Origin: a virus | Lineage: Duplodnaviria; Caudoviricetes | Length of the DNA stretch: 64,000 nucleotides | Reading direction: 5' to 3' (one strand) | Virus record (IMG/VR): IMGVR_UViG_3300025912_000012 | Span: 1-64,000 of that record | Shown: positions 1 through 64,000 of the stretch, one piece after another | How the letters are laid out: each line of letters starts with the position of its first letter | How positions within the stretch are numbered: position 1 is the first letter of the stretch | Notes under the pieces: model-generated | What the model saw: the letters and a program-made list of their open reading frames with translations, nothing else | The model's database searches: none | What the model was told of the DNA's origin: nothing | Translations under genes and position numbers: made by a program

Positions 1-892
1 CTTGGGTTTGATAGTGTTTGGGGTGTTGGTCAGCACGGCCGCCAGCACGGCGGGAGCGGATACGCCGCTCGCCTCAGGAGAACATGCGCCACGTGGATGT
101 ACATGGTCCACGTGCCACCGCCCCGATGGGCTGGCGCAGTGGACACGCTACGGGTGAACTCTGCCCGTAGGTCAGACCCAGGCATCTATATCCACGCCTG
201 GGGGACACTGGAGGGTGATGTGCGGGACGGTCCCGTGACCTCTAGACAACCACGTAACACGTGCCAGGCACGCGATTACCTTGGCTATATGCCCAAAATC
301 GGTACCTGATCCTAGGTATCAGTCGGTAATCACTGAGTAACACGTGGATGCGTAAAGCGACGACAGTCCGCCCCAGACCTTGATGGGCATCTGTCTCACG
401 GTAGGGATACCGGGATTCAGAAGAATGCTCTGTGAGGCAACGGGTGACACGTCGGGGACAACTTTAGCAACGGTGTAGCCAGCACTTTGACGCTGGTGAA
501 CCGTATCCCCGGTAAACGTGTCATCTCGCGCTAGTGGGAATGGGGGACATACGGAAAACGGTTGGGTTGCGGGTAATTCCCGTTAGGCGAGATGCCTAGT
601 CACTAAAAGCATATCGTTGCAATTGGCAAAGCTTGCCGATCCTGCGAATTGGGTGAGGGTAAGCGATGCGCGAATAGCTTGCTATACGCGTTGCAACGCG
701 AGATGTTTCGCGTCCAAGAAATCACAAGTTGCCAGCGTAACCACGGTGGAGTATGCGTCACGGGAGTGAGAGCGACGATATGTAGGCTGGCATTGAACGC
801 GCCAGCGACGATTGAGCTACGCCCTAGCTCATTGTCAGCATGCACCCAACGCGACAGTTGACAGATGTCGCGAGTGGGAATCCCGTCACCAA
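1..892 (+). ncRNA. candidate large structured non-coding RNA / structured leader
   Basis: No convincing ORF. Continuous hairpins with G.U pairs on + strand (e.g. CTACGGG/CCCGTAG, CGCGAATAGC/GCTATACGCG, TGAGCTA/TAGCTCA, CGCGACA/TGTCGCG). Family unknown. Confidence 0.5.
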
Positions 893-898
893 GAATGG

Positions 899-1140
899 GT
901 GATGGTGCGTGCCATCTGATTAGCGGAGAAAGTGAGTCATCAATGGATGCACTGGCTAATTCGCAAGTTGTACTAGCTGTCGTTGAGCACGATAACGGCA
1001 TCGTAGAGCAGCGCATTAACGACAAAGGCTGGATAATCCAGACCCTGGAACCTGACGTTATACGCGTCACGTTCCCGCTGATTCTCCACAACGCTAACTA
1101 AGAACACTAATTCCGCTAGTCAGATGGCATGCACCATTAC
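899..1140 (+). repeat. gene-enclosing inverted repeat, unit A (arms 899-927 / 1112-1140)
   Basis: 29 contiguous pairs, three of them G.U. Confidence 0.92.
943..1101 (+). CDS. small hypothetical protein (52 aa) in unit A
   Basis: ORF MDALAN... fills the loop between the arms. Confidence 0.7.
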   Translation: MDALANSQVVLAVVEHDNGIVEQRINDKGWIIQTLEPDVIRVTFPLILHNAN

Positions 1141-1173
1141 ACTTACGGAACCGTTCGCTTTACGGTGACGGAT

Positions 1174-1306
1174 AAGCGCATTACCTGATGTGCTCTGTGC
1201 ATGCGGTGATTATCTGTGTCCCTAAATCCAATGTTTACCTGGTATAGGTCGGGACGATTTACCAGCAGATTTCACCGTTTGCCTGAACACATCGGGTGAC
1301 GCGCTT
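1174..1306 (+). ncRNA. stem-enclosed non-coding unit B
   Basis: Arms 1174-1192 / 1288-1306. Inner helices CGGTGA..ATCTG/CAGAT..TCACCG and GTCCC/GGGAC. Confidence 0.6.
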
Positions 1307-1309
1307 TAC

Positions 1310-1649
1310 GGGTGCATGCATGCACACTTGCCTACCGGGGCAAGGGAGACACCATGCTTGAGAGTAGCGTGTATCAGTACCTGCTCAGTGAGAACGTAGG
1401 GCACAGCGTTATTGCGGGAATGATCGCGGAAGCGCTTATACACGGGAATTCCAACGGGTATCACGGATTCAAGGTCATCACGACCAATTCGGGATTCCCT
1501 GCGGAATTCCGGATCGAACGCATCGGGAAGCATCACGCCCCGGAACATCTCCCGGTTACCCCCGGGATCGTGGCACTATCGGACCTGATTGAACTAGTCG
1601 CCAGTAAGTGACAACCACTCCCGGTAGGTTAGCGTGCATGCATGCATTC
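1310..1649 (+). repeat. gene-enclosing inverted repeat, unit C (arms 1310-1339 / 1620-1649)
   Basis: 30-bp stem, 2 mismatches, G.U pairs. Confidence 0.9.
1354..1611 (+). CDS. hypothetical protein (85 aa) in unit C
   Basis: SD AAGGGAG; ORF fills the loop. Confidence 0.8.
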   Translation: MLESSVYQYLLSENVGHSVIAGMIAEALIHGNSNGYHGFKVITTNSGFPAEFRIERIGKHHAPEHLPVTPGIVALSDLIELVASK

Positions 1650-1651
1650 AC

Positions 1652-2132
1652 AGGGTGCATGTGCTCTCTTTTGGTCCCATGGGATATCCACTACCACAAG
1701 AACAGAAACTCAAGGATAAGGACAATCCCATGGCACAGCAGTCAGGTAACAACGGTCGCACGGGTCGCAGCAACGGGAGTCAGGTCAAGACTCCCCCGCC
1801 CGTGCAGGCTCCCACGGTCCTCGCCGTCACGCTCCCCAGCGATGACGAGTGGGACACGGGACACTACGCGATCTTGGAGCCCGAAGACCTCCCCAGCGAC
1901 GTGATCCTCGTGGCGCTGCGCGCCCAGGACATGCACGTCTCGTCCACGGGCAAGACGGTCATCCGCGCCAACGCCCAGTTCGAGCGCATCGACAGGACGA
2001 ACACCCTGTCGCTCACGCTCATGCGGAAGGCGACGGTCGGGGACACGAACAACCCCCAGCTGGTCAACCCGAAGAACAACGACAAGTAACAACCCGCATT
2101 CCCGTGGGATCAAATGAGAGCACATGCATTCT
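1652..2132 (+). repeat. gene-enclosing inverted repeat, unit D (arms 1652-1684 / 2100-2132)
   Basis: 33-bp stem, 1 U.U mismatch, 4 G.U pairs. Confidence 0.92.
1730..2089 (+). CDS. hypothetical protein (119 aa) in unit D
   Basis: SD AAGGA; strong GC3 codon bias. Confidence 0.85.
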   Translation: MAQQSGNNGRTGRSNGSQVKTPPPVQAPTVLAVTLPSDDEWDTGHYAILEPEDLPSDVILVALRAQDMHVSSTGKTVIRANAQFERIDRTNTLSLTLMRKATVGDTNNPQLVNPKNNDK

Positions 2133-2280
2133 TGCCTGTGAGTGCCTTTGAAAGGCACGGTAATACGCTTGTATACGGTAGTGAGTAGGCGTGAGCACTA
2201 ACTCTCGGTTGAGCTATGGTAGCCGCCCAAAGCACAGTGACCCAACGTAAACCGTGTCTTCCATAGGCACTCACGGGCAA
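2132..2280 (+). ncRNA. stem-enclosed non-coding unit E
   Basis: Arms 2132-2161 / 2251-2280 (30 bp, 2 mismatches) around ~90 nt without an ORF. Confidence 0.65.
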
Positions 2281-2282
2281 AA

Positions 2283-2618
2283 GCACATGCTGTACGTACT
2301 TAGGTGACGGATGTCTCTTTAAGGAGACATCATGCATGGTGAGGAATACAAGATATCCGGGTTGGCTATGAACGCTCCCTACGCTTTCGGGGTTTCCGCG
2401 ATAAGCGAGGAGATGTTTGAGGTCACGGTCAACCACATGATCGTGGGTTACGTTCTGCACAAGAAGAACGGGCGTTACGCCTGTCTCACCCGTGACGGGG
2501 TTTCCCTGAGCACGGGTGAGGGTACCGTCAACTTCCAGCTTTCCGTGCTGCGGGTAGTGAACCACTACCGTAACAACTAGCTGAGATCATCCGTCACCTA
2601 AGCGCGTACAGCATGTGT
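2283..2618 (+). repeat. gene-enclosing inverted repeat, unit F (arms 2283-2313 / 2588-2618)
   Basis: 31-bp stem, 1 mismatch, G.U pairs. Confidence 0.92.
2332..2580 (+). CDS. hypothetical protein (82 aa) in unit F
   Basis: SD AAGGAG; ORF fills the loop. Confidence 0.82.
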   Translation: MHGEEYKISGLAMNAPYAFGVSAISEEMFEVTVNHMIVGYVLHKKNGRYACLTRDGVSLSTGEGTVNFQLSVLRVVNHYRNN

Positions 2619-2625
2619 GTTCAAC

Positions 2626-2962
2626 GGTGCATGCATTCCGCAGGCTGCCTAGGGATAGGCAGGAAACAATGCCTCCTCGTAACAGTAATCGTGAAGAGCG
2701 TTCACCCGTATCTCTCACGGTGCCCGATAGTGACACTTTCTGCACGATCACGCTGGAAGGTCACCCCGAGTACACCGAGAAGATCTATGACGCGATCATG
2801 GCGGTTGCCGAGCCACGTCTGAAGATCGGGCGGGGTTCCGGGCAACTGGAACCGTCCCGTACCCCCGGGCTAGTCGGGGTACGGTATCTCTCCCTGGTGA
2901 TCCACAAGTCGGACCTGACAGAGTAACAACCACGTCTAGGCAGTCTGCGGTTTGCATGCATC
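2626..2962 (+). repeat. gene-enclosing inverted repeat, unit G (arms 2626-2652 / 2936-2962)
   Basis: 27-bp stem with one 2x2 U.U internal loop. Confidence 0.9.
2669..2926 (+). CDS. hypothetical protein (85 aa) in unit G
   Basis: SD-like AGGCAGGA; ORF fills the loop. Confidence 0.8.
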   Translation: MPPRNSNREERSPVSLTVPDSDTFCTITLEGHPEYTEKIYDAIMAVAEPRLKIGRGSGQLEPSRTPGLVGVRYLSLVIHKSDLTE

Positions 2963-2964
2963 TG

Positions 2965-3860
2965 AGATTAGTCATCATATGTTCACGACTATTCAGTCAG
3001 GAATCATGATGCGGTTTCGAACATAGCCTCTGACTAGCAGTCAGGGGCTTACCGTCTGTTCTCAGTTAATGGCAAGCAGATATGCGAGCCAAGACCCGGA
3101 CAGCCGCCAACCTACCGGCGCAAGCGATCCGGGAGTATGACGTGTGATCACGGATAACACTCGTCTTAAGAATGAAGATTAACCGTGAAACCATTGTTCC
3201 GGAAAGCGAGACTCCAGGGCACATACGCTCTGGCGGAATTCCCGGAAAGCCAGCGGTAATACGCGGCTGGCAAGCTGGAACCGTCCCCAGAGGGCTGGAA
3301 CGCAAAGGGGAGTAGCGCGGGATGCGCATCCCTACCGGGTAAGGATGGAAGACCGTGCGTTCGCGAGTCCGCTCACTCTTAGGGTGAGACATCCCGTAAG
3401 ACAATGGCTTTAATCGCTTTGCCTGAACGATCCGTGACATCACCTCTGTGCGGTAGTGCATCGTGATTCATCGTGATCCCCACGCGATTCAGCCATCTTA
3501 CGGGATATCTGACTCTAAGAGAAAGGGAAATAGCGGTGAGTTATTTATCCTGATGTAACACGGTGATCTCTCATTCCTTGATTATTAACCGGGAATGAGA
3601 GTGTTCCCTGCTAGCGGGTTTATAGCTAGGTTGCCCGGTCCGTTGTCCTAGGTTTGGCGAGAGTCAATTACTCTCGCCATTCCTGGTATCACGGAAAGGA
3701 GGATATCGCGGTGCACAGCTAGCCAAAGGTGCCTATACCTGATCCGACTCTGATTAGCCGATGAGGCATAAATGAATGTGAGGTTTGTGGAGAGTAGTCA
3801 CAGAAACCCCCCACGGGTACTCTCCGCATTCCCCGATTCGCATATGCCATATCCGAGGAG
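2965..3860 (+). ncRNA. candidate large structured non-coding RNA(s)
   Basis: No credible ORF. Many hairpins and a long stem 3376-3409 / 3491-3521. Confidence 0.55.
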
Positions 3861-3865
3861 GAAGA

Positions 3866-4072
3866 ATGAACCTGTTCCCTGCTACCGCTGCGATACTCCT
3901 CCGGGAGCGTACGTGGCTGAGTGATGCCGCCATCGAGAACTGGCTCCGCAACTACGGGCGCGGCGGTCACTCCGAAGGTCACCCGCTGTGGGTGAATACG
4001 CGGGACGGTAGCGGAGCCATGTACAAATTCCGGTATGTCAGCGGACTATGGCGGTTCGTTAAGGAGAAGTGA
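3866..4072 (+). CDS. hypothetical protein
   Basis: SD GAGGAGG; first of a run of coupled genes. Confidence 0.75.
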   Translation: MNLFPATAAILLRERTWLSDAAIENWLRNYGRGGHSEGHPLWVNTRDGSGAMYKFRYVSGLWRFVKEK

Positions 4073-4248
4073 TGAAGAAGATCGTGATCGTGGCGCTTAT
4101 CGCGGGAATTCTGGGGGTCACCCTGGGATACGCGATAGCGCAAGTCACCCGCAGTCAGGTGACATCCGTTGCCTGTCCCACGGAAGACTCCTGCAACGTG
4201 GACTACTACGGGGGAGCCTGGCACATCGTCCCCGGTCGTCCCAGCTAA
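4072..4248 (+). CDS. small membrane-anchored protein (CPTEDSC motif)
   Basis: Read by hand: MKKIVIVALIAGILG...; coupled to upstream stop. Confidence 0.7.
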   Translation: MKKIVIVALIAGILGVTLGYAIAQVTRSQVTSVACPTEDSCNVDYYGGAWHIVPGRPS

Positions 4249-4259
4249 AGGAGGGAAAC

Positions 4260-4493
4260 ATGCCGCGTAAGACAATCCCGGTGGAACGGGTGAAAGAACT
4301 CGTCAACGGGATGCTGGAACGCTCAGCGGATGACGTATCCCCGGACAGTCGCCTGATGGTGGCGAGTCTCCTCGAAACCATCCTGATGGAGACGGGCAAT
4401 TACCACGGGTTCGGGTACCTCCCCGGGGTTATCGACTTCGACAAGAACCCCCCGGAGGTCATCGGGGATGAGTCGCGCAGGAGGTACCACTAG
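4260..4493 (+). CDS. hypothetical phage protein
   Basis: SD AAGGAGG. Confidence 0.8.
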   Translation: MPRKTIPVERVKELVNGMLERSADDVSPDSRLMVASLLETILMETGNYHGFGYLPGVIDFDKNPPEVIGDESRRRYH

Positions 4494-4626
4494 TGAACGA
4501 GCTATGCCAGTACTCGGCACGGCACAACCACGAAGGTGTCCTCGCAACGGGCACCATCGACTGCGGTCCCGTGGGGATCATCCCCGCGTGTGACAAGTGC
4601 ATTCAGTTCTACGAAAGGATGAGCCA

Positions 4627-4953
4627 GTGAAACTCTCCGATTTCCCGGACGGGACCCGCGTCTACTCCGCGAAGCACAAGACGCACGGGACAGTGGATCA
4701 CCCCGCAAGGAAGCTGGTCCACGTCAAGATGGACAACACCGGGCAGGTCCGCGCTCTCCCGGTGGATGACCTGTCCATCGTCACGGAGTCGCGCCCCCAG
4801 CGGGAATTCCGCGAGACTCCCCCGAAGCTCCGCAGCACGCGGTTCAACCGCAAGGTCCCGAAGGCTGATGTCCCGGTGCCTGCGCATCTGGCACGCGTCC
4901 GCAGGCGTTCCAGCGGGTACACGAACCTGTCCCGCATGATGCTGGTGCGGTGA
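4627..4953 (+). CDS. hypothetical protein (SH3-like N-terminus possible)
   Basis: SD AAAGGA, GTG start. Confidence 0.7.
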   Translation: MKLSDFPDGTRVYSAKHKTHGTVDHPARKLVHVKMDNTGQVRALPVDDLSIVTESRPQREFRETPPKLRSTRFNRKVPKADVPVPAHLARVRRRSSGYTNLSRMMLVR

Positions 4954-9423: not shown

Positions 9424-9603
9424 ATGACATTCTGGAAATCAGCCAAAGAGCTTTTCCTGTGGCTGCTGGTCATTGTCAAGTTCGCGGGGATCATCGCGGG
9501 CTGCTACGGGATCGCGCAGGCTTTCGAGCACATCGATGACATCCATCACGACACTCACGTGATCTGCCTGCAGGTCACCCACAACTCGCATAGCTGCAAG
9601 TGA
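9424..9603 (+). CDS. small membrane protein
   Basis: SD AGGAGG; MTFWKSAKELFLWLLV... Confidence 0.7.
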   Translation: MTFWKSAKELFLWLLVIVKFAGIIAGCYGIAQAFEHIDDIHHDTHVICLQVTHNSHSCK

Positions 9604-10010
9604 TGCGACGCTTCAGGCTAAGGCGCACCCTGCGCAGGCTGTACGGGAAAAAGTCAGGTATCGAGTGGGTGTTTCATGCTCCCGCTGGTCAGCCCTGCCC
9701 CGCATGCCTGGTGCTGAGCATCCACGAGCCGCCATGCGGATGCGGGCATTGTCCCGTGCCAGTCACAGAGGTGATACATAAATCCCTCTCCGAAAGAATG
9801 AAAGAACTAGGACTGTAAGGAAAAGGATCATGTTCGCAGCAATACTCCGTAACAAGTGGATCACGGTAACGCTCTGCTCGTACGAGGTTGCCGCGATCCT
9901 GGCACGGACAGAAAAGATTCCCCCGATAACAGCAGTCGTACGGAAACGCCCGTGGGTGGGTGCTGTCCTCACTGCTGCCATGGGGTACCACTTCATAGAG
10001 GAGATAAGAA

Positions 10011-10760
10011 ATGGGCAAGTTCAGGCGTCGCGGACGTAAGCACCGCAGGTCCGCGACGATCACCACTCCCCCGGAATGGCTGGATTACCCGAGGGACTAC
10101 GGGACCGGGAACCTGGGGCATGTTGTCCTGATGGGTGACTCCATCCTCGACTGCAAGCACTACACGAAGAATGACCCGGACGTGGCGCAGCGGGTCTACG
10201 AGGAGCTGGGGGAAGACTGGAAGGTCACCCTCACGGCAGTTGACGGAGCTACCACGCGCTCCCTCGGGTGGCAGATGAAGGACATCCCGTCCGATGCCAC
10301 CCGGATCATCCTCTCCATCGGGGGGAATGACGCGATGGGGGAGTCGGGGATCCTCACCGACAAGCGTGAGATGAGGATCGTGGATTCCCTCTACGAGCTG
10401 GCGCTCATGCGGGAGATGTTCAAGTACAGCTACGAGGATGTGGTACTCCCCATCCTGGAGCTGGGAATCCCCGTGACGGTATGCACCATCTACGACTGCG
10501 ACTGGAGCGACGCGGAGAAGGACGCGATCCTCACCGCGCTCTCGCTGTTCAATGACGTGATCATCCGTTTCGCGGACGAGCATGATCTCCCCGTGATTGA
10601 CCTGCGCTCCCTGCTCACCTCCCCCGAGGACTACGAGCTGACCATCGAGCCCTCCGCGATCGGGGCTGCGAAGATCGGGGCACGGATCGGGCGGCATGTG
10701 CTGGCGAATGCTCCTGCCCGCTATGACAACAACTGGTACATGGAGAATCACCAGCCATGA
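10011..10760 (+). CDS. SGNH/GDSL-family hydrolase
   Basis: Blocks VLMGDSILD, AVDGA, SIGGND, IEPS. Confidence 0.85.
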   Translation: MGKFRRRGRKHRRSATITTPPEWLDYPRDYGTGNLGHVVLMGDSILDCKHYTKNDPDVAQRVYEELGEDWKVTLTAVDGATTRSLGWQMKDIPSDATRIILSIGGNDAMGESGILTDKREMRIVDSLYELALMREMFKYSYEDVVLPILELGIPVTVCTIYDCDWSDAEKDAILTALSLFNDVIIRFADEHDLPVIDLRSLLTSPEDYELTIEPSAIGAAKIGARIGRHVLANAPARYDNNWYMENHQP

Positions 10761-11119
10761 GCGAATCACAGTTTGACCTGGCATTCGACTGGGACGGGAC
10801 ACTCACCTCAGCGGGTGCTGCCCCCGTCGGGCGTGACAATCCGGGAGTGAGCATCGATCTCACCCCGGTGAGAATGGCCCTGTCCCGTGGATTGCAGGTC
10901 GCGGTGATGACCTGTAACGACGTGGGCTATGTCGCGGCTGCTCTCTACAGGCACGGGGTTCTTGGCTACCCCGATCACGAGATGCAGTACAAGATTCCCC
11001 CTGTGTTCCTGGGTGGGTATGTGCTGGTGACAAACCGGAAGGTGCTGGCACGCAAGTACATCGATGACCGGGGGATGCACTGGCAGTTCGGGGATGACCC
11101 TGAGCTGATCTTCGAGTAA
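10757..11119 (+). CDS. HAD-superfamily phosphatase-like protein
   Basis: FDWDGTL ... YIDDRG. Confidence 0.75.
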   Translation: MSESQFDLAFDWDGTLTSAGAAPVGRDNPGVSIDLTPVRMALSRGLQVAVMTCNDVGYVAAALYRHGVLGYPDHEMQYKIPPVFLGGYVLVTNRKVLARKYIDDRGMHWQFGDDPELIFE

Positions 11120-11288
11120 GGAGAAACGATGAACGAGAAAGAGCTGGAGATTCTCACGGACATCCTCTGCGGGGATGAATCCAACGAGAGTAACGAGGTG
11201 ATCATCGACCTCGGGAACGTGTCCCACGGGGTGATCATCACTGATCGCAGTCACCCGCAGTACAACGCCTACCTGCTGGGAATGTGAC

Positions 11289-11987
11289 ATGGAATTCCTG
11301 GCACAGATGAACATCCGCTTCCCAGGGGTTCCGCATGACCAGATCGTGCGGCTCCTCGAATCCGAAGCTCTTGCCGCGAAGCCCTACCTGGAGTCAGGGG
11401 AGTTCACCCGGGCGTGGCGCTCCTGGGGTAACCACGAAGGTGACCACGGGCACGTGGCGCTGTGGACCGCTCCCAGCTCCCAGTGGGTGCGGGACAGGTA
11501 CGAGGCGTTCCCCCTCGTCAAAGGCGGGTACACGGATACCCTGGTCATCACCCCCCTGATGCACAACCCGAACGATCCTGGTCCTCACCCGCTACATATG
11601 GCGGATGCCCCGTTCCCTCTGACGTACGAGAACCTGAACAAGCATCTGGCTGAATACGGGCGGAACAGCACGGTCACCAACGAGGGTGCTACGGCAACCC
11701 TGGTGACCGGGGTTACCATTCACGATCACCCGCATTCAGGTCGTTCCCGTGAGATTCACTTCATGGTGTTCGGGCAGAAAATCGCGGAGATCGGACCTCC
11801 CACGATGCATGAGGGTGACGAGGTTGCCCCCAGGTATATCGACCTCCTCGCGTACTGGGACGGTAAGCCGGTGCATCACGATGCGTGGAAGAACCGCATC
11901 CTCGCGGACAACGGGCTGCTGTTCGATGACTACGAGAGCGCCAAGGCCGCACCCCGGACCCGGCACATCCTCGCGAGCAACCCGTGA
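11289..11987 (+). CDS. muconolactone delta-isomerase-like N-terminal domain fused to an unknown domain
   Basis: MEFLAQM...SGEFTRAWR...FPL...ITPLMHNPND resembles the CatC family. Confidence 0.65.
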   Translation: MEFLAQMNIRFPGVPHDQIVRLLESEALAAKPYLESGEFTRAWRSWGNHEGDHGHVALWTAPSSQWVRDRYEAFPLVKGGYTDTLVITPLMHNPNDPGPHPLHMADAPFPLTYENLNKHLAEYGRNSTVTNEGATATLVTGVTIHDHPHSGRSREIHFMVFGQKIAEIGPPTMHEGDEVAPRYIDLLAYWDGKPVHHDAWKNRILADNGLLFDDYESAKAAPRTRHILASNP

Positions 11988-12193
11988 TCGTCACGCTGCT
12001 CACGATAGCAGCGGTCATTCTTGCCATCGAGGCGGGGATGGTCATGGGCTGGTCCCTGACTTTCCGGGAATGTCACCCGTTCAACTGGCGGGTTTTCCTC
12101 GGACCATGGGTTTACAGGCAGTGGGCATGTAACCACTGACAGGTGAATCCGCGCAAGAACAAAGAAAATCTCACGGATCGGAACTGAAATGTA

Positions 12194-12952
12194 ATGTCAA
12201 AGATGTGCGCCTCCTACCTCAGTCTCGCGGGCAACCCTCACGGGAAACTCCCCAGGTTCTCCGCGATCGAAAGGGCGAAAGCAGCCCACGCCGCTGGCAT
12301 CCCCAGCATCGGGGTCCTGTGGAACGAGCCGCTTGACCCTGCCATCCTCAGGTACGTGCAGGTCCCGGAAGCTGAATGGTTCGACCTGTCCGAGGTCCCC
12401 GGGATTGCCATGATTGACGCGATGCGGGTGCTCCGGAACGACTACGGGGTCACCATGATCAAGACAGGGCTGTGCGCCGCTGGGTTCCCCCTGGACGACG
12501 CTGCCCGCAACCTGACCGACCTCATGGGGTTCGCGGCTACATGCGGTCTGACCGTGGCTGTGGAGCCTGTAGCGTGGGGTTCAGCCCCGTCCCTGGGTGA
12601 TACCCTCGCCCTGATGCGCGCTGCTGGTGTGGACAATCGTAGCGACGTGGGTGTCTGTTACGACCTGTGGCAGCTCGTGTACGGGAGTACTATCTCCGAG
12701 CGGTACTACGTTCCCTCCCTCGCGAAGATCGAGGTCTCCGGGGTGAGCTTCCCTGACGGGACCCCGCTGCAGGAAGCCGCGATGGACCGACCGCTGCTCG
12801 CGGATTCGATGTACGACACGCGGGGATGGGTGAGCAGGATCACCGCCCCCCGGGGTGTCCCGGTCACGTACGAGGTCCCGAATGCGCATCTACGGAACAT
12901 GCCCCTGCTCGAAACCGCTCAGGCTATCGCCATCGACATGGAAATGCTGTAG
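12194..12952 (+). CDS. sugar-phosphate isomerase/epimerase (AP endonuclease 2 TIM barrel)
   Basis: VAVEPVAW, VGVCYDLWQ, TYEVPN motifs. Confidence 0.7.
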   Translation: MSKMCASYLSLAGNPHGKLPRFSAIERAKAAHAAGIPSIGVLWNEPLDPAILRYVQVPEAEWFDLSEVPGIAMIDAMRVLRNDYGVTMIKTGLCAAGFPLDDAARNLTDLMGFAATCGLTVAVEPVAWGSAPSLGDTLALMRAAGVDNRSDVGVCYDLWQLVYGSTISERYYVPSLAKIEVSGVSFPDGTPLQEAAMDRPLLADSMYDTRGWVSRITAPRGVPVTYEVPNAHLRNMPLLETAQAIAIDMEML

Positions 12953-50305: not shown

Positions 50306-50635
50306 TCAGCGTCTTTCATTTCTCCCCGCATTCTCCCAGGTCAGAGCAGGATTCGGATGCCATTCCAGGTGATTGTGAAAGAAACCTGCGTGACTCGTCT
50401 TGATGCTGTGCTCATGCTCCGCAGCCCCCTCCTCGTCCAGGAGATTGAGCAGCTCGTGGATAACATCGATCAGGTCGTACAGCTCCTCAGGATCACGGTT
50501 CTCCGCGAACTCTCCGTACTCTTCCCCGAGTTTCTTCGTGAGAGCTGACACAGGGTCAGGGGAAATCCTCCACTGCCCGCTGATGTGACCTTCCAGTTTC
50601 TCCTGCTGACGATCACGGACTATCTTCCATCCCAT
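50306..50635 (-). CDS. MazG-like NTP pyrophosphohydrolase
   Basis: KIVRD...KLGEEYGE...EELYDLIDV. Confidence 0.75.
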   Translation of the reverse strand: MGWKIVRDRQQEKLEGHISGQWRISPDPVSALTKKLGEEYGEFAENRDPEELYDLIDVIHELLNLLDEEGAAEHEHSIKTSHAGFFHNHLEWHPNPALTWENAGRNERR

Positions 50636-51477
50636 TACTCAGCACCTGCACTTTCCCCAGGTACATCTCCAGGATTGCTATCGCTTTTCGGGAGCACCAG
50701 TTCGTCGTTCCTCCGGTAGAGGTAATCCTGGACGGTGATCTTCTCCCCTGTCGCAGGCATGAGGATTTCGCTGGGAAGATGACCGGAGGTTCCCGCGATC
50801 ATCCACGCCTCCCGCAACTGCTCAACGGTGGTAGCTTCCGCTATCTTCGTGATCAGCTGCTCCAGTGTCAGGATCTCTTGTGCGGGAGCCTGCACGCGCC
50901 TGCGTGTCCTTGAAGGAAAAACCTTTGGGATCGTCTCTGCGTCCTCTGACTCGGGAGCCTCGGGTGCTATCACCGGGACATCATCAGTATCCGCAGCGGT
51001 GCTCTCAGGACGCACCAGGGTCCACCTGACGATCGCGTCCTGACTCCCCTTGTTATAAAGGGACAGCCCGAACTGGTCACCCAGGTTGATGGCGCATCTT
51101 CTCAGTGCATATGTCTGGGAGTTTGTCAGGGCATTCCCGTGGGCTTCCCCTCGGACAGGATGGGTTGACTCCCCGACGTGAGCCCCGTCGTAAAAGCACA
51201 CCGGCTCCCCGTCAGGAGCGGAAATGGTAAGCCTCACCCGGGTGCGGTACACGACATACCAGGCTTTCTTGCCCTGGCTTGTCTGTGTCTCGTTCTCGCA
51301 GACCAGCTGCTGGTCAAGAGTCTCCTCGTTCCAGCGCCCGAACCCGAACACCCTGGTCAGCTCAGCGCGTACGTCGTAACCTTCAACGTAGGAGAGTCCC
51401 CGTGTGACCGCTACCCGATTCGGGTGGATTGGCTTGAGCAGGAGATTAATCTGATCCTCGGTGAAGTATCCCATCAT
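50635..51477 (-). CDS. Rad52/Rad22-family single-strand annealing protein
   Basis: LSYVE..VFGFGRW..ALRRCA..GDQFGLSLY. Confidence 0.88.
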   Translation of the reverse strand: MMGYFTEDQINLLLKPIHPNRVAVTRGLSYVEGYDVRAELTRVFGFGRWNEETLDQQLVCENETQTSQGKKAWYVVYRTRVRLTISAPDGEPVCFYDGAHVGESTHPVRGEAHGNALTNSQTYALRRCAINLGDQFGLSLYNKGSQDAIVRWTLVRPESTAADTDDVPVIAPEAPESEDAETIPKVFPSRTRRRVQAPAQEILTLEQLITKIAEATTVEQLREAWMIAGTSGHLPSEILMPATGEKITVQDYLYRRNDELVLPKSDSNPGDVPGESAGAE

Positions 51478-62428: not shown

Positions 62429-62500
62429 GGGGAGATAGTTCAACGGTCAGAATTTCCGGCTCCAACCCGGAAGATGTGGGTTCGAATCCTACTCGCCCTG
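62429..62500 (+). tRNA. tRNA-Trp(CCA)
   Basis: Cloverleaf, loop CTCCAAC, GGTTCGAATCC. Confidence 0.88.
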
Positions 62501-62589
62501 CGTTACGCCTCTCGTACAGGCTTGCTAAATTGAAAACTACATCTTTTCAGTACAGGTCGGGGGACGGGTTGTGGTACCGTCCTCCGCAT

Positions 62590-62663
62590 GGGCTGCTAGC
62601 TCCAATTGGCAGAGCAACTCCTTTGCACGGAGAAGGCTATCGGTTCGAATCCGATGCGGTCCA
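62590..62663 (+). tRNA. tRNA-Ala(TGC)
   Basis: Cloverleaf, loop TTTGCAC, G3.U70. Confidence 0.92.
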
Positions 62664-62664
62664 C

Positions 62665-62862
62665 GTGGCAGATAAGAAACTATCAGATGACCTGATTCGC
62701 TGGATCAGGACAGTCAATCTCCCCCAGCGGGTGGTTGCGCACCAGCTGAAACGTAATCACGGGATCACGGTTGACCAGTCACTGATATGGCAGATCAGGG
62801 CAGGCAAGAAATACGCAGACGTTTCAGCTGTCCCCCCGCTTGACACTCTCGGGGATAGCTGA
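62665..62862 (+). CDS. small HTH-like protein within the tRNA array
   Basis: KLSDDLIRWIR...VDQSLIWQIRAGKKY resembles HNH-associated HTH tails. Confidence 0.55.
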   Translation: MADKKLSDDLIRWIRTVNLPQRVVAHQLKRNHGITVDQSLIWQIRAGKKYADVSAVPPLDTLGDS

Positions 62863-62928
62863 TAGATTTCCTCTCGTTCCCCCGTTGACTTGCTCCTCAG
62901 GAGCACTCGGGGTTCTCGGGGGAACACA

Positions 62929-63002
62929 TGCCAGCTCGTCTAACGTAAGACACCCGTCCTGATAAGACGGGAGATGGTGATAGCGTAATTCACCGCTGGC
63001 CC
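62929..63002 (+). tRNA. tRNA-Ile(GAT), atypical T-loop
   Basis: Loop CTGATAA, D-arm and acceptor GCCAGC/GCTGGC; T-loop TAGCGTAAT lacks TTC. Confidence 0.65.
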
Positions 63003-63005
63003 TAT

Positions 63006-63078
63006 GGGGCTGTAGCTCAGCTGGCAGAGCACCTGCATGGCGTGCAGGGGGTCCGGGGTTCGAGTCCCCGTCGCTCCA
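63006..63078 (+). tRNA. tRNA-Ala(GGC)
   Basis: Canonical cloverleaf, G3.U70. Confidence 0.93.
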
Positions 63079-63100
63079 CGCAAAAGCGAAGGAGAAAAGA

Positions 63101-63232
63101 ATGGCTAAGAGCAGGGTCAGGAAATGGCTAGGGACTGACGTATCGCTCCGCAAGGCAATGATCTTCATGGTGTTCGTGATGGTTGCCTTGTTCTTGCTCG
63201 CGGTATTCGGGGTGATACAGCCCAGCAAGTAG
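63101..63232 (+). CDS. small membrane protein
   Basis: SD AAGGAG; one TM helix. Confidence 0.65.
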   Translation: MAKSRVRKWLGTDVSLRKAMIFMVFVMVALFLLAVFGVIQPSK

Positions 63233-63274
63233 TGTTAATCAGGATCGAGGAAGACGGTAATCTGCCGCGTGGAG

Positions 63275-63772
63275 ATGGACACTCACCTGAAGGGCGAGTT
63301 CGCTGTCCTGAAGGTCTTGATGCGAGCGGTAGAAAAAGGCTGGATAGCTAGTCGTCCGACCCGAGAGTGCCGATACGATCTAGTGCTAGATGATAAGGTT
63401 AAGCTCTATCGAGTTCAAGTTAAGTATGCTAATCGGCTAGCATCTCACACTAAAGGAGCGATTCATCTAGCTCTTACGCAAAGTGGAATAAGAAAAAAGA
63501 ATCCCTACCTAGATAGCGAAGTGGATGCACTAATTGTCTACATCGCACCAGCAGACATGTTGATCTGGCTAGAGACAAGTCATTTCCACAAGAAACGACA
63601 GCTCCATATTAGATATGAACCAGGCAAAAATAAGCAGAGGCAGGGAATTCTTCTTGCTGAGAATTACATTTGGTTAGCGGCTTATAGTGTAAGGGTAAGC
63701 GCGCTGGTCTCGGGGACCAGCAGACCAGGTTCGAGTCCTGGTAAGCCGACTAGGCAAGCCACGTGCCTTTAG
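63275..63772 (+). CDS. PD-(D/E)XK homing-type endonuclease (I-Ssp6803I-like)
   Basis: KGEFA...RYDLV...RVQVK...Y...EVD; AT-rich relative to flanks. Confidence 0.85.
   Translation: MDTHLKGEFAVLKVLMRAVEKGWIASRPTRECRYDLVLDDKVKLYRVQVKYANRLASHTKGAIHLALTQSGIRKKNPYLDSEVDALIVYIAPADMLIWLETSHFHKKRQLHIRYEPGKNKQRQGILLAENYIWLAAYSVRVSALVSGTSRPGSSPGKPTRQATCL
63678..63749 (+). tRNA. tRNA-Pro(CGG)
   Basis: Acceptor CGGCTTA/TAAGCCG, loop CTCGGGG, GGTTCGAGTCC. Confidence 0.88.
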
Positions 63773-63817
63773 CTGCCACCCTTGCTAGCAGGTTGAACGG
63801 GCAGCATGTGGCACCAT

Positions 63818-63888
63818 CCGGATGTAGTGAAGGGGTAAAACGCCAGCCCTGGGAGCTGGAGTCGGAGGTTCGAATCCTCCCATCTGGA
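63818..63888 (+). tRNA. tRNA-Pro (TGG by stem register, C33)
   Basis: Acceptor CCGGATG/CATCTGG, stem CCAGC/GCTGG, loop CCTGGGA. Confidence 0.82.
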
Positions 63889-64000
63889 CGCAGCTGAGTT
63901 CTCCCCCCTGTAAGTTCAGCTGTAATATGATGCGCATGAAAAGATCAGTATCCCGGGCGACTCAGTGGAGACTGGAAACGGTCTGTTGAGGCTCAGAGAT

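Follow-up and report, generated by a model that had tools for sequence, protein, structure and literature searches.

A run of small genes at the start of an uncultured soil phage genome lies in the loops of long RNA duplexes, one gene to a duplex, and the question raised by this locus is what such stems do around a gene. The window analysed here covers positions 1-64,000 of a viral record of 135,079 bp, which is estimated to be 88% complete; DNA of the phage was found in soil and rhizosphere metagenome runs. None of the GenBank phages matched the array region, and compared with cultured phages the terminase and primase showed at most 36% identity. The best matches of the RtcB protein were from Actinomycetota (52-59%) and those of the primase mostly from Gordonia, Arthrobacter and Streptomyces phages, so the host is probably actinobacterial. 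The array stands at the head of a rightward arm of small genes and adjoins a non-coding kilobase from the other end of the record, both ends being joined in L004, one of four related metagenome loci (L001-L004). This kilobase (genome positions 134000-135079) contains many TTCGAA sites, CGGACA repeats and three inverted repeats, and is perhaps an origin or packaging end. Further into the window, the early genes at 10011-12952 include host-like enzymes (a GDSL-like hydrolase, a muconolactone isomerase-like protein and a TIM-barrel isomerase/endonuclease), and a strain in DNA run X2 lacks 216 bases at 9599-9816.

An earlier note had described seven nearly abutting stems, five around one ORF each and two around non-coding inserts. 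All seven arm pairs are present (Table 1), the units are separated by 33, 3, 2, -1, 2 and 7 nt, and the division into coding and non-coding loops was upheld. The five coding loops hold an SD, an ORF and a stop codon and little else, with the stop 7-10 nt upstream of the 3' arm. We found an eighth stem, overlooked in that note, which is also present in L001, L002 and L004. When the entire genome was scanned with G.U pairs allowed, the top seven + strand duplexes (scores 19-28) all fell within 899-3521, and outside this stretch the + strand reached 18 at most. Stems scoring at least 19 numbered 7 within 850-3600, whereas 200 dinucleotide shuffles yielded 0.005 on average. The stems measure 26-33 bp, except for about 20 bp in cassette A, and the array shows the helix of about 22 bp or more around the product that is expected of a processing stalk. 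The arms of a pair lie 89-415 nt apart, around the cargo, which rules out local intergenic hairpins of the T7 type. Each arm pair had been said to have its own sequence; the arms do differ from cassette to cassette but are not wholly private, as GGTGCATG opens stems 2, 3 and 6 (three of its four genome copies) and the arms thus share an outer motif.

Table 1. Features at the left end of the window (coordinates of the window; cut products are predictions).
Feature	Position (strand)	Arms	Mismatches	ORF	Predicted product	Remarks
Putative -10 element TAGTGT	12-17 (+)					TG before; candidate host sigma-70-type promoter, start near 24
Structured non-coding RNA	33-787 (+)					~750 nt; first operon unit; without Rfam family
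Conserved linker	838-898 (+)					co-varying hairpin, loop GTTGACAGA; strand 883-890 pairs with about 1163-1170 outside stem 1
Cassette 1	899-1140 (+)	899-927/1112-1140	none	943-1101 (52 aa)		
Cassette A	1174-1306 (+)					non-coding; ~20-bp stem extended inward by structured insert
Cassette 2	1310-1649 (+)	1310-1339/1620-1649	A.C 1326/1633, U.U 1329/1630 (both invariant in 5 loci)	1354-1611 (85 aa)	1329-1632	
Cassette 3	1652-2132 (+)	1652-1684/2100-2132	U.U 1669/2115	1730-2089 (119 aa)	1672-2114	
Cassette B	2132-2280 (+)	2132-2161/2251-2280	2148/2264, 2151/2261		2151-2263	non-coding
Cassette 5	2283-2618 (+)	2283-2313/2588-2618	A.C 2298/2603	2332-2580 (82 aa)	2301-2602	
Cassette 6	2626-2962 (+)	2626-2652/2936-2962	tandem U.U 2636-2637	2669-2926 (85 aa)	2640-2950	
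Second structured non-coding stretch	3070-3375 (+)					no long enclosing stem
Eighth stem	3376-3521 (+)	3376-3401/3496-3521			3389-3510	94-nt non-coding insert

Neither PHROGs nor Atlas yielded a function for the cargo proteins, and the AlphaFold model of ORF 3 was unusable (pLDDT 51). The insert of cassette A has a fold z of -2.5. Its loop CTAAATCCAATGTT (insert at 1196-1284) is kept in L001, L002 and L004, not in L003, and the insert is without Rfam match.

The same abutting array occurs in all four related loci, which are about 75-97% identical over the matched stretches, and these served to examine whether the arms co-vary, as the earlier note had suggested. Both arms varied in 21 of 247 stem columns where 4.8 were expected (P 2e-13, phylogeny ignored), a count that omits cassette A of L002 as well as the outer portion of stem 6, which has slipped. 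All but one of these 21 columns went from one Watson-Crick pair to another, with 95% of cells paired; cassettes 1 and B each have three such changes, and in cassette B a mismatch survives its own substitution (U.U to U.C). One-sided changes mostly stayed paired as G.U when read on the + strand (20/28). Together with the compensatory changes, this bears out the claim that selection acts on pairing in the + strand transcript, and we infer that the array functions on this strand. The related claim that departures from Watson-Crick pairing are mostly G.U was only partly right: with strand-neutral borders, which do not favour G.U, these pairs outnumber A.C, but the bias is weaker than stated (13 vs 6 in the window, 39 vs 22 in the four loci). 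The other mismatches in the stems are mostly conserved and lie mid-stem.

Across the four loci the arms are mostly 88-100% identical, and the cargo has diverged or been replaced. In L002 the arms of stem 1 are 88% identical around unrelated cargo and those of stem 2 93% identical around an unrelated ORF; in L003 the arms of cassette 5 are 98% identical and the enclosed protein 40%. For ORF 3 the protein identity is 73-78%. Whole units have been gained or lost between relatives, and the extra ones sit exactly between neighbours (3362-3926 in L002, 2568-2816 in L004), leaving gaps of -1 to 8 nt. Because they are conserved, the arms may also serve as crossover points for swaps of cargo. Searches of IMG/VR by ORF 3 or by arm and linker patterns found no further arrays, and neither did those of GTDB. 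Terminase relatives (L009-L014) stop short of the array, and in the record G002 an ORF-poor stretch is followed by only about 200 nt of the first gene before the sequence breaks off.

Such exchange raises the possibility that the arms are mainly sites of DNA exchange, as in integron- or PeSL-like cassettes, and that RNA pairing is a by-product. The gain and loss of units at their borders and the unrelated cargo within arms of 88-98% identity would agree with this, as would an ORF at 50635-51477 (-) that resembles by eye a Rad52/Sak-type annealing protein, whose product could use the 30-bp arms for exchange. We consider this explanation improbable. The arms differ between cassettes, unlike shuffling repeats; one-sided changes mostly keep + strand G.U pairs; the conserved mismatches and the RNase III register described below are features of RNA; and no excised or flipped DNA form was found in run X2. 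Integron cassettes have a self-contained attC hairpin between genes and come with an integrase; the arms here pair across genes and not locally.

The mismatches indicate where the stems might be cut. The first mid-stem mismatch other than G.U lies 13-17 bp from the loop in all nine distinct mismatch-bearing stems (stem 1 has none) and is often invariant. In three stems two mismatches flank 2 bp, which on sequence is the dyad of a putative RNase III double cut. In E. coli, G-C at position 4 of the proximal box blocks cutting by RNase III, T7 R1.1 has U.C at this position, and one box set is enough for cutting (PMC1540722). We fixed the mismatch at -3, i.e. at proximal-box position 4, and scored the remaining positions of the consensus WNAGWGNNCWUNNN^ (PMC4357697). 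The outer halves (5' arms) gave 35 matches out of 63, compared with 20 +/- 3.7 under the dinucleotide null (P 0.0001 at the fixed register and 0.0012 over 13 registers; the rules applied are those of E. coli). The six window stems alone gave P 0.002. The pattern W-G-n-n-C was present in five of nine stems at the mismatch-anchored register and in at most one at any other. Stems 3 and B matched 5/7 positions, stem 6 4/7, and stem 2 (3/7) and the eighth stem (2/7) were the poorest in the window. The match to the consensus does not extend to the inner halves (23/63), register +4 is nearly as good (33/63), and most stems taken singly fall short of significance when the mismatch is not used as an anchor. 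At proximal-box position 2, stems B, 5 and X have G-C, which inhibits the E. coli enzyme. The signature of a processing stalk, i.e. the consensus and proximal box with no G-C at position 4, is thus found in the outer halves; the inner halves mismatch it and position 2 departs from it in three stems. L002 has at 2289-2633, upstream of cassette 1, an extra nested double stem around a short ORF, the 5' arm of which matches the RNase III consensus at 7/7 positions at one register.

Cuts at this register would yield products of RBS, ORF and stop codon, or non-coding RNAs, each clamped by 11-13 bp. Long-range stems are cut by RNase III in vivo (PMC6212723, PMC11780869). Neither an RNase III nor a dsRNA-binding domain nor an Rnl1 ligase was found in the phage record, estimated at 88% completeness, and the RNase III would therefore come from the host. 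We infer that RNase III cleaves the stems, and we give a probability of about 60% to the reading that host RNase III processes the array, in the manner of rRNA, into single-gene RNAs with clamped ends.

The same duplexes might instead bind the enzyme to no further end. As a decoy, the array would titrate the host's RNase III or a defence protein that senses dsRNA, and its cargo would be incidental. This suits the placing of eight duplexes where the first operon begins, as well as the several stems in which proximal-box position 2 is G-C or the inner half is poor. That is quite improbable in our view: the tight fit of SD, ORF and stop within the loops and the conservation of the proteins, as in ORF 3, show that the cargo matters, and the weak pair at -3 favours cutting and not merely binding.

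The region is also represented in RNA libraries. Three rhizosphere metatranscriptomes, possibly from one campaign, contain it at 99% identity or more as contigs, in which strong stems can drop out and from which ends, strand and level are not readable. Cassette 3 was recovered in all three runs (1684-2086, 1688-2090 and 1689-2096) and cassette 6 in one (2653-2930). These contigs have their limits 0-5 nt from the loop-side end of the 5' arm and 4-14 nt from the 3' arm; measured from the predicted cuts, their starts lie 12-17 nt inside the 5' one and their ends 18-28 nt short of the 3' one. Their stopping at the stems gives a weak hint of separate RNAs. Another contig (1142-1350) covers cassette A completely and continues for 22 nt beyond the cut predicted in stem 2, and two contigs extend 12-17 nt past the predicted cut of the eighth stem, so uncut RNA (or DNA) exists at stems A, 2 and 8. 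That the crossed stems 2 and 8 are the poorest matches to the consensus would fit selective cutting, which from such small numbers is again a weak hint. Cassettes 1, 2, B and 5 and the stretch 3600-4800 were without RNA cover and were not counted as evidence.

Contigs crossing stem A and the 5' arms of stems 2 and 8 also suit the view that the stems are left uncut and act in an intact transcript as folding clamps, insulators and a switch that permits translation after the whole cassette has been transcribed. Models of the start sites speak for the switch. In most copies of cassettes 2, 3, 5 and X the cost of opening the SD-AUG region falls by about 3-9 kcal/mol when the 3' arm is present, and the cognate arm masks more than shuffled arms in 19 of 21 cases, the copies not being independent. 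Masking reached p 0.01-0.03 only for three of the four copies of cassette 3, in which the 5' arm can pair with its own AUG; cassette 5 has a local SD-masking hairpin, and in cassettes 1 and 6 the effect is weak or absent. A switch of this kind leaves unexplained the stems around non-coding cargo and the mismatch-anchored RNase III match, and a near-perfect 30-bp helix is itself a likely target of RNase III. We therefore regard uncut stems as rather unlikely. According to the folding models, masking of the start site is likely a second role of some of the arms.

The earlier note had proposed that a polycistronic RNA is folded, and possibly cut, into monocistronic or circular RNAs. Pairing in the + strand transcript, presence in RNA libraries and an RNase III-type signal are supported and cutting is predicted; circles were not supported. 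Archaeal pre-rRNA provides the precedent, its cut pieces being ligated into circles, and here the ends of each product would be held side by side in a phage that encodes RtcB (E 1e-107). RtcB, however, requires 2',3'-cyclic-phosphate or 3'-phosphate plus 5'-OH ends, and RNase III makes neither. No T4 Rnl1-type ligase and no ribozyme family match was found, and the contigs of the three RNA runs contained no back-joint, an absence that is weak in contigs. The RtcB gene stands upstream of a tRNA cluster (56582-57751 and 62429-63889), its usual repair context. Ligation into circles is accordingly highly improbable.

The cassettes would follow a large structured RNA in the same transcript. At its start we propose a host sigma-70-type promoter, whose -10 element is kept in L001 and L004; L002 has TTGACC-17-TAGGTT in the same place, and the consensus promoter scanner did not call the window element. 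The leading RNA was recovered in all three runs (33-787, 34-782 and 154-779), with a mean contig depth of 29-34, compared with 2-9 in the remaining contigs and a DNA depth of 5-17 across the initial 7 kb, contig depth being a poor measure of level. Its fold z is -5.2 and that of the - strand is the same, so its strand rests on the promoter and the lower energy. It contains no convincing ORF, and Rfam covariance models (GOLLD, ROOL, OLE, introns and ribozymes) gave nothing above noise in window 1-4000 and L001-L004. The slot between the shared leader (1-59) and the linker, which is 79-98% kept in the four relatives, is occupied by three unrelated sequences, one in the window and L004, one in L001 and L003 and one in L002, so the slot is swapped too. 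Positions 170-630 of the leading RNA are almost identical in L004 and the flanks 80-85% alike, which reflects either strong constraint or recent exchange. The three unrelated RNAs share the hairpin motif GGGTGAAnTCTRCC (window 152-166, L001 257-271, L002 about 1780-1795); 27 loose-motif matches of the long RNA, none with arrays, were judged to be chance. The alternative RNA of L001 (104-119, about 115-535) starts with TTCTTGATAACTCAA, followed by a strand pairing about 400 nt downstream. This sequence presumably resembles an actinobacterial rrn boxA and is absent from the window. Downstream of cassette 6, the region 2963-3375 has a fold z of -3.9, and 3130-3190 is 97% identical in L002. The contigs over the second structured stretch start at 3061, 3095 and 3095 in the three runs; the two starts at 3095 lie just downstream of a co-varying hairpin (3070-3091).

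Taken as RNase III processing, the locus would work as follows. A host-type promoter at the left genome end would drive one early transcript, with the non-coding RNA first and the cassette train behind it. On completion of each cassette its arms would pair into a leader-trailer helix of about 30 bp, which host RNase III would cleave on both strands in the middle of the stem, two base pairs to the inside of the conserved mismatch. Genes and small RNAs would be freed as separate molecules, their ends paired with a 2-nt 3' overhang; the clamp would shield them from exonucleases, and each unit would decay at its own rate. In some cassettes, cassette 3 being the best case, the 5' arm would first mask the SD/AUG and release it on arrival of the 3' arm, and the conserved arms would double as points of crossover for swapped cargo. 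The exact cut sites, the stabilisation and the translation switch are all predicted parts of this scheme. More tentatively, and at well below even odds, the locus may represent the rRNA-operon design reused as a plug-in expression system, with RNase III-cut sockets giving end-clamped, long-lived RNAs, 5' arms holding off translation of a unit until its completion, and phages swapping sockets, cargo and the leading RNA of about 700 nt (at least three unrelated, undescribed kinds) with one another.

If this holds true, the stems would let phages produce mRNAs of one gene each, protected at either end, and exchange early genes unit by unit. The cut sites are predicted exactly, and testing them does not require the phage in culture. 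The sockets could stabilise and insulate genes in synthetic actinobacterial operons, and the locus points to several undescribed RNAs, including the one of about 750 nt in soil metatranscriptomes.

The note had known of no described phage system with this layout, and we likewise found no description of arrays of gene-enclosing stems in phage mRNA in the literature covered, most subscription journals lying outside the search. To our knowledge, leader-trailer helices are known for stable RNAs and not as a general wrapper of messages. The closest likeness is to the helices around 16S and 23S rRNA (PMC10250234, PMC3074117), where complementary arms also enclose each product of one primary transcript; shared too are a helix long enough for RNase III (22 bp), the RNase III box match and a large structured RNA in first place. 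Unlike an rrn operon, the array carries SD-ORF-stop mRNA and small RNAs in eight units that abut one another, lineages exchange both cargo and complete units, boxA is lacking in the window and cleavage is a prediction. The array was not taken for an rrn operon as such, since the Rfam and tRNA searches of 1-4000 found no rRNA or tRNA among the enclosed products.

The sites of T7 early RNA such as R1.1 (PMC8708148, PMC1540722) likewise combine a phage early polycistronic RNA with host RNase III and a weak pair at proximal-box position 4, with cleavage here predicted. However, a T7 site is a local hairpin that lies between two genes, and in R1.1 one strand is cut, whereas in the present array the gene itself forms the loop and cleavage of both strands would leave the two ends of one message clamped together. 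The long-range RNase III targets of E. coli and B. subtilis (PMC6212723, PMC11780869) resemble the array in that the two cuts of a pair can be separated by hundreds of bases (16-1080 nt in E. coli; predicted here), but are scattered single sites and not a modular array bracketing whole genes. In the PeSLs of T4-like phages (PMC4122927), conserved elements also flank small variable early genes and act as exchange points; PeSLs recur as direct repeats of similar sequence, each bringing a promoter and a local stem-loop, while our arms differ from cassette to cassette and are inverted around the gene. PeSL cassettes were rejected, as the array has no such direct repeats and the consensus promoter scan gave no + strand matches inside it. 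In the type I toxin mRNAs aapA3 and hok (PMC6733600), too, the nascent RNA masks the SD until a 5'-3' long-range helix forms, but their final fold stays off, whereas here it would switch translation on. This locus contributes a predicted cut register anchored on the mismatch and the presence of the array in metatranscriptomes.
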